Under the pieces are notes generated by a model, which saw nothing but the letters and a program-made list of their open reading frames with translations, did no database searches and was not told the DNA's origin. A program made the position numbers and the translations under genes. Shown in pieces: positions 1,990 to 9,754 of a stretch of 64,000 nucleotides of DNA; position 1 is the first letter of the stretch, and the number at the start of each line of letters is the position of its first letter. The DNA lies in IMG/VR virus record IMGVR_UViG_3300011480_000001, positions 27,263 through 91,262 of that record. The stretch is one strand, 5' to 3'. Source of the DNA: a virus. Taxonomy: Duplodnaviria; Caudoviricetes.

Positions 1990-3495
1990 CTAGGTATTTT
2001 CATTATTTGATGTTGAGCTATCGCCACTACCGCCTGAAGAAGAACCAGTTCCATTCCCTAGACCAGTCTCCATCCCGTCACCGCTTCTTGAAGTATCTTC
2101 CCCAAGTAAACTATTTAACTCTTCTTGGGACATATCAACAGGAATACGATAAGGGATATCAGCAGTTTCAAGGATCCAGTTAATCGTCTCTCTAACGCGC
2201 GGGAGATTTCCAGTAGCGGAAACACGTTGAATCCACTTACTAACTTCATCTAGTGAAGGCTTGCTAATCTCACCATAAGTGATTTCTGGCATCACATCAG
2301 TAGAGAATCCGTTTAGCTCAAATAACTGGCGAACTAGGTCGTGATTTAGCTGAGACTTAATCTCGTTCAGTTTACTTTCAATCGCCATTTCAATAACAGA
2401 AATCTTAGTTTCTGCAAGAGAGAAAGAACCAGAACCGTTAGATCCAAGTGAAAGGAAATCAGAGAAAAGGCAAGTAAGAATTTCAGAATTATAACGAGCA
2501 ATAATTGCGTTAGTGTCGTAACTCGATTGTCCTGTTACACTTTTAACCTCAAACTCAAACATTTTATTATTGTTATCGTCTGTGATTAATGGAAGAATGA
2601 TGCCTGATTGTTTAGCTTGATGAATGTTTGCAAGAATCTTTTTATACTCTTCAAACACTGCTTTATCCTGCTCTGTTGCATCAGCCTTCATATACTGAGG
2701 GGGTAGGTAAAGGATCTTGAATCCGTTTACATCCTGTGCAACTCTCATTGCCTCTGATTCCATATAAGCTTGTTTATATTTCCAAGCCTGCCAGCAACCA
2801 TTTAAGGAGCTAACCCCTGTAGGAGAATTCTTTAATGGGTTGTTGCGGAAAAGTAAGAACTTTTTACGAGGAATAAACTTACGCTGAGTTTCTTCACTGT
2901 AAACGAAGTCCCAACCTTGGTAGTCTTCTGGTTGACCAGGTACAACTACGTTTTGATAAAGTCCCGCAAGCTCACGTCCTTTGTTTTTCCATTTCCAGCC
3001 GTCAATAGAATCTTGGGAGCGGATAGGTAGCTTCTTGATACCAATCAGTCCATCATTATACTTACTTCCTTTATCTCTCGTTCTGTATCTGTAACATTTT
3101 TCAATGACACAAAAACCGTAACGATTAAAGCTTACGACTTGTTTGATAAAAGATTGCCAATCCTCCTCCATATCGTACATACACTGGCGTAGGAAATTAG
3201 CTTTATCTTTCAATTCATCTTCATAACCTTCGGGGATTTTTACAACCCAAGGTACACGAGCAATCATCATTTCAACAAGTTCAAGGGCAGGTGCCACAGC
3301 ACCGTCTTTAGCCATTTTCTTGTAAGTTTCACCGGCCATCGGCCACCTTAGCTCCCGGCTGCAATCCTCTAGAATTTGACCTCCTAACGTAAGGAGGCCC
3401 ACATACCCTGTCTCTCCTAGAGTAAGAGCAGGGATATCGTTATTTCCAGGGGACAGTTGAACATCCTCTGAAGACTCAATTTCAACTTCAGCCAT
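1990..3495 (-). CDS. Portal protein (DUF935-like)
   Basis: About 500 aa between terminase and protease; YGFCVIEK and GSFSLAETK motifs. Confidence 0.88.
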   Translation of the reverse strand: MAEVEIESSEDVQLSPGNNDIPALTLGETGYVGLLTLGGQILEDCSRELRWPMAGETYKKMAKDGAVAPALELVEMMIARVPWVVKIPEGYEDELKDKANFLRQCMYDMEEDWQSFIKQVVSFNRYGFCVIEKCYRYRTRDKGSKYNDGLIGIKKLPIRSQDSIDGWKWKNKGRELAGLYQNVVVPGQPEDYQGWDFVYSEETQRKFIPRKKFLLFRNNPLKNSPTGVSSLNGCWQAWKYKQAYMESEAMRVAQDVNGFKILYLPPQYMKADATEQDKAVFEEYKKILANIHQAKQSGIILPLITDDNNNKMFEFEVKSVTGQSSYDTNAIIARYNSEILTCLFSDFLSLGSNGSGSFSLAETKISVIEMAIESKLNEIKSQLNHDLVRQLFELNGFSTDVMPEITYGEISKPSLDEVSKWIQRVSATGNLPRVRETINWILETADIPYRIPVDMSQEELNSLLGEDTSRSGDGMETGLGNGTGSSSGGSGDSSTSNNENT

Positions 3496-3497
3496 CA

Positions 3498-4235
3498 CTA
3501 CCCCTCATTAAACTTTACCCACTTACTATCTTGACAAGGAATCCAACCTTCCTTAAATTTCTTAAGTATAGTAAAAATTGAACTTCTAGGGACTTCATCA
3601 CAATACAACTCATTATAGAGTTTAGTGAATCTACGCTCACCCAGTTTATCAGAGTTAATCCAAACTTCATAAAATACTTGTGCATTCTTCCAAAGCAATG
3701 TTAGATAAGGTCTTGCAACTACCTTAGAAGTTTCCCAAGGAGCAAGATTCTTATTCCTAGCGGCTTTTGACATATTCTTTCTTGCGGTTTCTGATCTTTT
3801 TGCGCCAAGATTAGCCATACGGGTACGCTCTATTGACTCAGGAGATTGTTTCCTGCCTTTGCTTGCAGCTCCAGTTTTCAGCTTAGCTTCTTCTGTATGC
3901 TTCTTACCGAAGAAAGGATTGCCCGCGCCCTTATTAGCTGTTGAGGCTACTATTCGGGCCTTTTCAAATTCTCTTGAAGTAGTCTTATAGCTATTACTCA
4001 TAATCCAATACGCTCTTTGGTATTGTTTACAAGACTTATTAGACTTCCACAAAAGTTTATGGGCAAGGAAATGTTCCCTCAAAGTGAGTAACACTAGGTT
4101 TTCTTTCTTGTTTGATCCACCCATACTTCTCAAGACAATATGGTGCTTCTCAGTATAAAAATTTAATTTATTCTTGTTCAGACCTCTAGCCTGCCTTGAG
4201 TAAACAAGTTTGTTGTAAAGATCTAAGTAATTCAA
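3498..4235 (-). CDS. Free-standing HNH homing endonuclease with NUMOD3 repeats
   Basis: EKHHIVLRSMGGSN...NLVLLTLREHFLAH HNH core; NPFFGKKHTEEAK, GRKQSPES and GAKRSET NUMOD3-like repeats. Confidence 0.88.
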   Translation of the reverse strand: MNYLDLYNKLVYSRQARGLNKNKLNFYTEKHHIVLRSMGGSNKKENLVLLTLREHFLAHKLLWKSNKSCKQYQRAYWIMSNSYKTTSREFEKARIVASTANKGAGNPFFGKKHTEEAKLKTGAASKGRKQSPESIERTRMANLGAKRSETARKNMSKAARNKNLAPWETSKVVARPYLTLLWKNAQVFYEVWINSDKLGERRFTKLYNELYCDEVPRSSIFTILKKFKEGWIPCQDSKWVKFNEG

Positions 4236-7385: not shown

Positions 7386-7451
7386 GAAAAATACCTCTTA
7401 TTATTCTTTACTTTCTTTGTAAAAACTACTCAGAGAATAGGCTTTAGAAAG

Positions 7452-7570
7452 AAGTCTATATGAGAGGAGAAAGACACATATAGACTTGGAAGCGGCTATA
7501 CGAAGGAGGAGAGACAACGTACAGCCAATAGGCGTTCAACTACAAACAAGGAGAGAATCTGTAGTTGAAC
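7452..7570 (-). repeat. Three tandem 9-11 bp hairpins with UCUCCU-containing loops
   Basis: Stems 7452-7462/7477-7487, 7494-7502/7518-7526 and 7534-7544/7560-7570. G.U pairs form only on the minus strand. Confidence 0.85.
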
Positions 7571-7601
7571 ATTCACGCATTACTAAGGAGGATTTTACTT
7601 T

Positions 7602-7895
7602 TTAGCGTGAAGAAGACACTCTAATGAGACCATTATTTTCATACTCAGTTTCGTCGTATTCGTGACTGAATAATTTATAATACACTTCATCAGAAAACTG
7701 TTCAGTTTCAGCTAAGCTGTGTGCAACCATATTAGCTCGACCAACATTAGGAAACTCACCAAGATTTTCGCTAGATGTTGACTGAGACGATTGTGTGTAT
7801 TTCGTCACTACATAACGAGTAACTGGTCTTACTTTATACTCAACCTTGGCGTAAGGCTTTTCTTCTGTTACATTTAAATCTTCAATTTCAATCAT
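7602..7895 (-). CDS. Hypothetical protein
   Basis: 97 aa ORF with GGAG RBS. Confidence 0.7.
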   Translation of the reverse strand: MIEIEDLNVTEEKPYAKVEYKVRPVTRYVVTKYTQSSQSTSSENLGEFPNVGRANMVAHSLAETEQFSDEVYYKLFSHEYDETEYENNGLIRVSSSR

Positions 7896-7992
7896 ATTTA
7901 CTTAACTCCACAGAGTTTTTAAATTTAAAATTACAATCCGCAGATTGTGTTATTAGTTTGTAGTCTTTCCCACTGTCATTTAAAACTTAGGT

Positions 7993-8177
7993 ATTACAGA
8001 GGAAGTCGCACCGTTCTGTTAGCTACGCCCTCAAGGGGACTGGGTCCAGAACATATAGCATTTTAAGCTATATCCGCTTCCAACAGAGAGTGTATTCCTC
8101 TGTCCGTCCAATGACTAATTAAAGTCCAGTGCCGCCTAATACACAACGGTGCTCACTGCTGGTCTTACGTCTGTAAT
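7993..8177 (-). ncRNA. Candidate structured ncRNA (about 185 nt)
   Basis: Nested stems ATTACAGA/TCTGTAAT, GCACCGTT/AACGGTGC, ACTGG/CCAGT, ACAGAG/CTCTGT and ATATAGC/GCTATAT; no ORF. Confidence 0.55.
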
Positions 8178-8180
8178 GTT

Positions 8181-8269
8181 TGGCAACCCGTAGAAGTAAT
8201 GATCTCCGTGACGATCCATCCTCATGTTTTACGTCAAAGGCTTAGAAGACCTCTTGAGGGGTACGGGTT
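8181..8269 (-). ncRNA. Atypical tRNA-like RNA with an Arg(TCT) anticodon loop and no D-arm
   Basis: Acceptor AACCCGTA/TACGGGTT followed by GCCA; arm AGAGGT-CTTCTAA-GCCTTT; 4-bp T-like stem GGAG-ATCATTA-CTTC. Confidence 0.65.
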
Positions 8270-8274
8270 ATATG

Positions 8275-8349
8275 TGGTGGGACCAGCAGAAATTGCATCT
8301 GCATATCTCGTCTTATGAGGACGGTTCATTACTTTTATGATATAGTCCC
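8275..8349 (-). tRNA. tRNA with CAT anticodon (Ile2 or Met)
   Basis: GGGACTA/TGGTCCC acceptor with ACCA; D-arm TCAT/ATGA; anticodon loop CTCATAA; T-arm GCAGA-TGCAATT-TCTGC. Confidence 0.85.
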
Positions 8350-8354
8350 GTAAA

Positions 8355-8764
8355 TTCATTGCACCCTAAAGTCATAAAATCAGGAGTTAAGGAATTACCT
8401 ACATTTCTGTATTCTTTAGGACGACTTTACCAGAATGTGACGTATTCTACTCACTTACCGAAGGTCAAAATAAGCTTTCAAACAGAGCGTCTTCACAGAT
8501 AGCTCATTCTGATTTTTATAATTGCCTTTCGGCCAACAGAATTCCTAGCGTCTGCTAGGCTACGGTGTAATTGGTGTAAACCTACACTATCTCTCACCCT
8601 GTGAATTCGTAGAACTACTAAATCGTATCCGCTCTCGTAGTCGTAGCTCGGATTTAGCATCCCTGTTGGAAGGACTGGTCTACTCGCCAACGTATTACGC
8701 CGCGTATGAACGTAATATCCGTGTTGCTCTTTTAAATTCCCGAAGCCTCTTCGGCTTTCCTGTG
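8355..8764 (-). ncRNA. Candidate large structured ncRNA (about 410 nt)
   Basis: Directly behind a consensus promoter; many hairpins; the only ORF (8493-8771) starts inside the -10 box. Confidence 0.55.
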
Positions 8765-8769
8765 CTGAC

Positions 8770-8797
8770 ATTATACACTATTTATTTATATTGTCAA
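8770..8797 (-). promoter_or_regulatory. Consensus sigma70 promoter for the RNA cluster
   Basis: TTGACA-N16-TATAAT. Confidence 0.85.
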
Positions 8798-9006
8798 CTA
8801 TTTTCGTTATAATCTATCAAATTTAGTGCGTATTCCGTAATATCTCCAAACTGATAGGTCTTTACATCAATATATTCAGAGTTATCTGAAATGAAGATAC
8901 ATGCCGTACACATATCTTCTTCCACGTACATACCTTCAAACTCATCATTGCTTTTATATCGAACCATCCCTGTTAAGGGCGTGTCGCAACATTTACATCT
9001 AGACAT
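8794..9006 (-). CDS. Small zinc-finger protein
   Basis: CKCC...CTAC; 70 aa. Confidence 0.65.
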   Translation of the reverse strand: MSRCKCCDTPLTGMVRYKSNDEFEGMYVEEDMCTACIFISDNSEYIDVKTYQFGDITEYALNLIDYNENS

Positions 9007-9754
9007 TTCTGATAAATCCTATTCCTTTTTCATATTGATTTGGGTCTTTACCAGATTTACTACGATTGCATGTTGGACACAAAAGCTGTAAATTATCAGG
9101 CCAGTGACTTCCACCCTTACACAAAGGCATTATGTGGTCAATATGATAACCTGTGTTATCAAACAAGGCATCACAATAGACACACTGACCTTCTTGATTC
9201 ATGTAAAGGAGTTGAATGTCCGCATTACTAAAATGGCCATCAGCTTCTAATTCACGCTTACGTCTAAGCTGGCTGTAAATCTTAGCCCAAGGTTTGTAAT
9301 TTTCTTTGTTTTCTTTTACACATGCAACGCAAAGTCCTGTCTCAGTAGATCGTTTAGAAAGGTGATTGTTTTTACATGGTAATTTAGTATCATAAAAAGG
9401 CTCATCGAGTTCCTTAGCTATCTCTTTGGTTCTTGGTAAAATATCCAAATCTTCTGAACCAAAGGTGTAGTTCGTCAACAAACCTGTCTTTTCTGTATCT
9501 GAAACTTCTGATAAAGTTTCTCTAATAAACCGCAGAGCTTCTTTTGCTTTCTCTTTCTTGGCAACTCTATTTTCAGCCCGTTCTTCCCATTGGAATGAGT
9601 TTTCAGCTTTATGTTCTTCAAGACATTCACAACATTTGTTTGTAGAAACATACCTATCTGAAATATGACCTTTAATACATGCTTCACCAGTAAAATAGAA
9701 AACTAACCCAAGCTCTTTGGCCTCTTTTCTTGTGATTATTTCCACAATTACCAA
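8999..9754 (-). CDS. HNH endonuclease with two N-terminal Zn-binding repeats
   Basis: CVYC...HIDHIMPLCKGGSHWPDNLQLLCPTCNRSK; duplicated (K)EAKEL...C..(G/N)H.S.R...C..C module. Confidence 0.88.
   Translation of the reverse strand: MVIVEIITRKEAKELGLVFYFTGEACIKGHISDRYVSTNKCCECLEEHKAENSFQWEERAENRVAKKEKAKEALRFIRETLSEVSDTEKTGLLTNYTFGSEDLDILPRTKEIAKELDEPFYDTKLPCKNNHLSKRSTETGLCVACVKENKENYKPWAKIYSQLRRKRELEADGHFSNADIQLLYMNQEGQCVYCDALFDNTGYHIDHIMPLCKGGSHWPDNLQLLCPTCNRSKSGKDPNQYEKGIGFIRNV

Follow-up and report, generated by a model that had tools for sequence, protein, structure and literature searches.

That the tRNA regions of phages carry extra stable RNAs with obscure roles has been recognized for fifty years, the classic case being rnaC and rnaD of T4. 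T4 rnaC (species 1, 139 nt) and rnaD (species 2, 119 nt) are non-tRNA RNAs that lie within the phage tRNA array, are co-transcribed with the tRNAs and adjoin the SegB homing endonuclease gene. GOLLD (RF01998) and ROOL (RF03087) are likewise structured, often phage-borne and often found beside tRNA genes; they are ornate and several hundred nucleotides long. Other structured RNAs that follow a promoter include the HK022 put elements, which are two stem-loops of ~70 nt at the head of an operon, and RsmY, RsmZ and CsrB, which are promoter-driven, multi-hairpin non-coding RNAs defined by GGA-in-loop repeats. The cutting of phage transcripts into units by hammerhead ribozymes has also been documented (Perreault et al. 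2011, PMC3088659).

The DNA analysed here, which we refer to as the window, was a stretch of 64,000 nucleotides, the final 64 kb of an IMG/VR phage record that is 91,262 bp long and has direct terminal repeats. The large terminase had ~51% identity to its counterparts in Pseudomonas phage phiK7A1 and the PAK_P1 group of Pseudomonas phages, and many Felix O1-type matches were also found; the carrier is an uncultured, Felix O1-related, Ounavirinae-like phage. The genes around the flagged stretch were all on the minus strand, in the order HNH endonuclease (8999–9754; PF01844, E = 7e-12), a 70-aa ORF (8794–9006) directly upstream of the RNA array, the flagged stretch itself, a 97-aa gene downstream of the array (7602–7895, with its ATG at 7895) and small genes. 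The same minus-strand order continued beyond these with terminase, a homing endonuclease and portal. The HNH gene and the 70-aa ORF lie outside the RNA and are given as context. The best cultured match of the 451-aa gene upstream of the region was 31% identical and came from Pseudomonas phage vB_PsaM_M1, an 89-kb Ounavirinae member that has three ordinary tRNA genes at the syntenic site. The distant relatives L002–L005 (~50% amino-acid identity) had ordinary small genes at the position of the array, and in L003 (53% identity) both the HNH gene and the RNA array were missing from the syntenic site. No match was obtained when the region was compared by BLASTN with 50,697 phage records; closer relatives were reached through the 97-aa protein and exact motifs.

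Several other features of the phage were recorded. Two homing-type endonuclease genes flanked the packaging region, the HNH gene (in the 8794–9754 minus-strand segment) and a NUMOD3-containing gene (3498–4235, minus strand) that sits between terminase and portal. An RNA ligase family protein (PF09414, 62 bits) was encoded outside the window (G000:C1:6402-6908), and vB_PsaM_M1 has an annotated RNA ligase a few genes from its 451-aa homologue and tRNA genes. Members of the RtcB, Ro60/TROVE and CCA-adding enzyme families were not found in the phage genome. ARAGORN at a lowered threshold placed a tRNA-Thr(UGU) between 6889 and 6963 on the minus strand, between genes of 137 aa and 175 aa, and L006 had an Infernal tRNA match (38 bits) at what is, by gene order, its apparent counterpart. 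In the gap after the 97-aa gene (7418–7533, minus strand) there was a weak, sub-threshold match of 21 bits to ar14, an alphaproteobacterial sRNA. Matches to this model were also obtained in L008 (33 bits) and, with 24 bits, in L042; as gene order apparently puts them at the corresponding place, a conserved structured element may sit at 7418–7533.

The sequence-only reading of this DNA had placed a perfect sigma-70 promoter at the head of a ~410-nt non-coding RNA, and the promoter was confirmed. TTGACA-N16-TATAAT was found on the minus strand at 8797–8770 and scored 12/12, with the −35 box at 8797–8792, a 16-nt spacer and the −10 box at 8775–8770; this spacing predicts a transcription start near 8763. 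It was the sole 12/12 sigma-70 match in the whole 91-kb genome. Ten sites in the genome scored at least 11/12, compared with 4.2 ± 1.7 in shuffles, and all ten had a perfect −35. Judged by these matches, the phage clearly appears to use host-type promoters, of which 8797–8770 is its best.

From ~8763 down to the ATG at 7895 the sequence formed an ORF-free run of ~870 nt rather than 410 nt, and the earlier view that it contains no credible ORF was borne out. A small protein, encoded either by the 92-aa frame at 8493–8771 or by the antisense 47-aa frame at 8359–8502, is scarcely credible. Both frames are open in the window, but family matches were absent for both (zero for the 92-aa frame against Pfam and PHROG), and the 92-aa frame starts within the −10 box, has no ribosome-binding site and has a 5′ half without a counterpart in relatives that keep the 3′ half. 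Indels of 1–2 nt and a 19-nt deletion shift the frames in the homologues, where the stretches left open, on either strand, are in differing frames and would give unrelated peptides; this excludes coding. Alternative genetic codes (table 4, TAG=Q) gave no convincing ORF.

Homology between the window and its relatives began and ended at different points, which shows the stretch to be an array of cassettes. Read from sequence, the region between 8763 and 7921 on the minus strand is a putative polycistronic array of RNA genes in the order 5′ hairpin, A1, A2a, A2 core, tRNA(CAU), tRNA-Arg(UCU)-like unit, RNA C and a weak terminator, and these cassettes appear to recombine independently between phages. 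In L006 and L017 homology to the window started at ~8605–8613 and continued downwards. In the contig group G001 (L023/L042) it started from 8735, at ~95% identity, and the promoter and HNH gene fell in sequence missing from G001. G003 (L025/L043) shared 8518–8350 only. L007 shared the tRNAs and the sequence downstream, including RNA C; it was missing A2, and a promoter of its own preceded the tRNA by 30 nt. L008 and L009 had only the last 80 nt in common and carried four canonical tRNAs instead. This mosaic divides the flagged 410 nt into A1 plus A2. The single ~410-nt class proposed by the sequence-only reading was not upheld, in that 8605–8350 was common to most relatives, 8518–8350 to the most distant one and 8735–8606 to one other contig. 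What stood was a new structured non-coding RNA before tRNA genes, in the form of A2. On comparative evidence A2, and its 169-nt core in particular, is the one part of the 410 nt that is a conserved RNA with a structure supported by covariation, and it would represent a new family.

Among sequencing runs that were mostly wastewater metagenomes, all in the form of contigs, one RNA library had a contig that spanned 8353–8537 at a depth of 67, compared with 2–17 beside it. The same breaks were present in what is probably a DNA run, so that the step marks a cassette boundary rather than an RNA species and gives no basis for a claim of expression. Other cassettes were seen in the relatives. A conserved one of ~85 nt replaced A1 in L017 (1–125), L021 (~1740–1835) and L041 (upstream of 1410); it had a 7-bp closing stem and three hairpins in a cloverleaf-like arrangement and did not score with tRNA models. 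In L006 (~3000–3300) an extended −10 promoter was followed by ~300 nt of additional tRNA-like sequence leading up to A2a; this sequence included an arm with the odd T-loop of the window's tRNA(CAU).

The A2 core was located between 8350 and 8518 on the minus strand. Its covariance model, R1, recovered exactly nine copies (seven full and two truncated) at 74–188 bits, and none besides, in 298 kb of window and loci; these nine represent ~four lineages, mostly of one phage group. In their alignment 96% of cells were paired, compared with 33–49% when the 3′ partners were slid, a figure inflated by counting in an alignment that was fitted to the model, with the structure drawn from the same sequences. 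Double changes were present in 13 of 34 pairs, compared with 1–5 when slid, and the observed covariation was reached by none of 500 shuffles. In the fold, P1, a P2 hairpin and a P4–P3 arm meet at a three-way junction, which is followed by P5 and a 3′ tail. A C-G pair in P1 was changed to U-A. The P2 loop was a GNRA loop (GUGA or GUAA), and the P4–P3 arm had stems in four or five differing sequences that enclosed an AGUA/GAA internal loop; the likeness of this loop to loop E was judged by eye alone. P5 was a 10-bp invariant helix with a variable insert, and the 3′ tail that followed was single-stranded and also invariant. Together P5 and the tail (~35 nt) were identical in all nine copies, compared with ~70% identity between lineages in the remainder. 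As they never vary, the pairing of P5 is without covariation support and the segment is conserved as sequence; it could alternatively be a cis processing signal.

Folding energy was ordinary throughout (z = −1.5 for the whole stretch, −1.6 for 8350–8518 and −0.6 for 8606–8763), so that the case for structure must come from comparison. By that comparison the A2 core is, we conclude, a genuine conserved structured RNA. The hairpins listed in the earlier reading were present in the sequence, their folding energy was unremarkable and two proposed long-range pairings were contradicted. CUGUGAA, which had been given a long-range partner, belongs to a local covarying hairpin with a GUGA loop; the register UAAAGUCGU/AUGACUUUA was broken in L025, and CCUAAAG/CUUUAGG was kept. 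An Rfam scan of the A2 core region gave no match. Bacterial and archaeal genomes, scanned for the exact pattern of the invariant 3′ motif of A2, gave no match. When viral contigs were scanned less strictly, with a 15-mer, 18 matches were obtained, of which, by R1 and inspection, only the three known A2 loci were real. A 9-nt identity to 16S rRNA was attributed to chance.

The 5′ domain of A2, designated A2a, occupied 8519–8605 on the minus strand and had, on a smaller scale, signs of the kind seen in the core. Its closing stem had a U-A to C-G change, and a variable capped hairpin had three unrelated stem sequences among the copies. A further hairpin, of 6 bp and closed by AGAC, was invariant; the last, capped by GAAA, was optional, being deleted in L017 and swapped for a larger insert in L021. 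A2a was missing from G003/L025. The hairpin-rich A1 (8606–8735, minus strand) was lineage-specific, being found, ~95% identical, in the window and G001/L042 only; its position was filled by other modules in L006, L017, L021 and L024. With this one near-identical relative and ordinary folding energy (z = −0.6), A1 was without independent support for structure or function and may be a mere spacer. The 5′ hairpin (8743–8757, minus strand) had a 5-bp stem and a GAAGA loop; a hairpin at the matching place in G001 differed by a C-G to U-A double change, which is one pair in one comparison.

Downstream of A2 lay an atypical tRNA with a CAU anticodon and an encoded CCA end (8275–8349, minus strand), to which the Infernal tRNA model gave 50.3 bits at 8278–8349. 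Its T-loop was non-canonical and its D-loop lacked GG. ARAGORN at default settings reported no tRNA in the whole window and found this one only at a lowered threshold, and a fast Rfam pass also missed it. The CAU tRNAs of the relatives had other odd T-loops, some with a long variable arm. The next unit (8181–8269, minus strand) resembled a tRNA-Arg(UCU), with an acceptor-like stem followed by G-CCA. It had an aberrant body without an ordinary D-arm, was scored by no tRNA model and contained a long insert that may form a pseudoknot. The anticodon loop of this unit was invariant. In L007 its acceptor stem was wholly different yet complementary; in L017 a near-canonical tRNA-Arg(UCU) was present at the same place. 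The tRNA cluster that had been reported earlier consists, then, of one atypical tRNA and one tRNA-like unit and is weaker than was stated. No cloverleaf was found between 8350 and 8765 with tRNA models.

RNA C, a second structured RNA (7993–8177, minus strand), was always the last cassette of the array, before the terminator. It was supported by covariation among seven distinct copies, with double changes in 9 pairs compared with 0–2 when slid and 96.7% of cells paired. Its structure comprised a closing stem, several covarying hairpins and long invariant joining segments, with a possible pseudoknot of GGAAG with CUUCC. An Rfam scan of RNA C was empty. In L014/G001 a canonical tRNA preceded RNA C; L010–L013, considered as further carriers, were rejected as chance matches in the scan. 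At the end of the array, just ahead of the 97-aa gene's ribosome-binding site, stood a terminator-like hairpin (7921–7948, minus strand) of 6 bp, capped by UGCG and trailed by a stretch rich in U. This hairpin was kept in L006, L007, L008, L017 and others; since it fell below the scan criteria, the terminator is considered weak.

The 3′ boundary of A2 was sharp, as the invariant tail stopped exactly where unrelated sequence began. In seven copies (window, L006, L015, L017, L019, L021 and L024) the tail abutted the first base of tRNA(CAU). RNase P cleaves at the 5′ end of tRNAs. In the other context, a hairpin and a hammerhead core started ~20 nt downstream of A2 in G003, and a hammerhead core was found ~65 nt downstream in G001. 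By inspection, the candidate type I hammerheads of G001 (L042) and G003 (L043) had the full core (CUGAUGA, GAAA and cleavage triplet, GUC in G001) and three stems. Rfam HH9 gave the G003 motif 21 bits, compared with a gathering score of 52, and gave G001 none, and these hammerheads therefore remain candidates. No hammerhead was found in the window itself. In G003 the A2 core alone was present, ~55 nt behind its own promoter, TTGCAA-N17-TACAAT (9/12), and the flanks had almost no proteins in common with this phage; A2 was absent from three complete related genomes and vB_PsaM_M1. From its own promoter and unrelated flanks in G003 and its absence from relatives, A2 appears to behave as a self-contained, mobile, accessory RNA gene.

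Comparison with the known systems places A2 closest to T4 rnaC and rnaD. A2 is a non-tRNA RNA embedded in a phage tRNA array, the same context was found in eight relatives, and the array adjoins an HNH gene as the T4 RNAs adjoin that of SegB. The promoter, A2, tRNA(CAU), tRNA-like unit, RNA C and terminator lie on one strand in ORF-free sequence and would be co-transcribed. A2 differs from the T4 RNAs in that it is at the head of the array rather than its end, is larger and is differently folded. A search of the T4 tRNA region with R1, filters off, gave a best score of 11 bits, outside rnaC and rnaD, so that the likeness is one of analogy and not of homology. The earlier comparison with GOLLD and ROOL did not hold, as their models gave no match at gathering score in the window, nor at E ≤ 10 in 7400–9100 and 8345–8770, and the conserved unit here is far smaller (169–255 nt), the 410 nt being a composite of independent cassettes. 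The candidate hammerheads downstream of A2 in G001 and G003 fit the cutting of phage transcripts into units described previously (PMC3088659), the difference being that the window has a tRNA 5′ end in the hammerhead's place. Unlike HK022 put, A2 is found at widely varying distances from its promoter. Across all 4227 Rfam models, including RNase P, tmRNA, 6S, Y RNA, riboswitches and group I introns, only chance matches (E > 2) were obtained, and the whole 410-nt stretch matched no family, as the sequence-only reading had proposed to check. At gathering and permissive thresholds, scans of the window, its sub-regions and the relatives gave only tRNAs and one weak hammerhead match. A split or miniature RNase P RNA, suggested by a loose likeness to conserved segments, and a group I intron were both dropped because no model supported them and A2 and C occur independently.

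We consider it probable that A2, once released, is a processed, stable RNA acting in trans, and we read the whole array in this way. The primary transcript would be cut into units by the host tRNA-processing machinery, with the 3′ end of A2 made by an RNase P cut at the 5′ end of the adjoining tRNA, and in G001 and G003 the downstream hammerhead ribozyme would do the job of RNase P. Once free, A2 would be a stable, compact molecule at work in trans, and a conserved partner, which may be a protein or a host or phage RNA, would be bound by the invariant P5 helix and 3′ tail. In favour of this are the absence of coding, the promoter, the modular make-up, the covarying core, the discreteness of the unit, with an invariant tail that ends at unrelated sequence, its accessory and mobile nature and the precedent of T4, in which two small stable RNAs come from the tRNA region beside a homing endonuclease gene. 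Against it, the basis is assembled contigs of an uncultured phage, the nine copies amount to ~four lineages, mostly of one phage group, in a model-fitted alignment, and the pairing of P5 and the tail is without covariation support. When the phage genome was searched for sequence complementary to A1, A2 or C, the matches were limited to 10–13 nt, at chance level, so that a complementary target longer than chance is absent there. A2 is also always upstream of tRNAs, which a cis-acting leader would fit equally well. Such a leader, folding co-transcriptionally at the head of the array and without a role once cut off, is the main rival and is possible, at a distinctly lower probability. It might modify RNA polymerase in put-type antitermination, protect the 5′ end or present the atypical tRNA to RNase P. 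Wherever the context is visible A2 is upstream of all tRNAs and one or two cassettes from the promoter, in seven copies it abuts an atypical tRNA(CAU), which RNase P might cut poorly because of its altered elbow, and the invariant tail of A2 doubles as the tRNA 5′ leader. A leader of this kind is harder to reconcile with a promoter distance that ranges from ~55 nt to >500 nt with differing cassettes between, with G001 and G003, in which a hammerhead motif intervenes and no tRNA directly adjoins, and with L007 and L008, which have equivalent arrays without A2. The three-way junction, GNRA loop and AGUA/GAA loop are also more elaborate than known put or nut elements.

The remaining explanations are less probable still. 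One ~410-nt structured RNA, a large new class comparable to GOLLD or ROOL, would agree with a single ORF-free run behind one promoter with tRNAs adjoining, and the window and G001 do keep 8735–8350 together at ~95% identity; it is nonetheless improbable, given that A1, A2a and the A2 core are found separately in other phages, that GOLLD and ROOL do not match even at E ≤ 10, that A1 is without structural support and that the conserved unit is only 170–255 nt. A sponge that titrates the host regulator RsmA/CsrA through repeated GGA, which had been suggested earlier, is very unlikely. The nearest cultured relatives do infect Pseudomonas, and A1 has five GGA triplets, mostly predicted to be single-stranded. 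GGA was, however, not enriched in the stretch (6 observed, 7.4 expected), being at chance in A1 (5 compared with 3.5, P = 0.26) and below chance in the conserved A2 (1 compared with 3.9), which holds a single GGA, and the idea of an RsmA sponge is thus unsupported. The defining repeats of RsmY, RsmZ and CsrB are likewise not mirrored here. Nor was any Rfam model matched, the Csr/Rsm families included, and A1, which has five of the six GGA triplets, is the least conserved module. Equally slight is the chance that the region is non-functional debris, in which tRNA genes have decayed and the traffic of homing endonucleases through a tRNA hot spot has left scars of recombination. The hot spot itself, the adjoining HNH gene, the variable content, the aberrant tRNA-like units and the ordinary folding energies agree with debris, and for A1 this may well hold. 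It does not account for an A2 core that keeps 96% pairing through 13 doubly changed pairs, for a 35-nt 3′ part that is invariant across sequences otherwise ~70% identical or for the presence of the core in a phage with unrelated flanks.

Going beyond a trans-acting A2, it is conceivable, but rather unlikely, that A2 and, separately, RNA C belong to a new class of phage effector RNAs. The cassettes would travel between tRNA arrays and be excised by RNase P or a hammerhead, and the invariant helix and tail would capture a conserved host factor, for example an enzyme of RNA processing or a defence nuclease directed at tRNAs. Together with the RNA ligase of the phage, the atypical tRNA(CAU) and the molecules that resemble tRNA-Arg(UCU), A2 might then make up a counter-defence kit based on RNA. 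The family is small and its carriers are uncultured, which limits the yield. To the stable RNAs of phage tRNA regions this locus adds two families supported by covariation, A2 and C, as mobile cassettes with defined ends, at a tRNA 5′ end or a hammerhead, and in one case with a promoter of their own. As clonable units of 170–255 nt (A2) and 185 nt (C), each with a predicted structure and invariant surfaces, they lend themselves to pull-down and processing studies.
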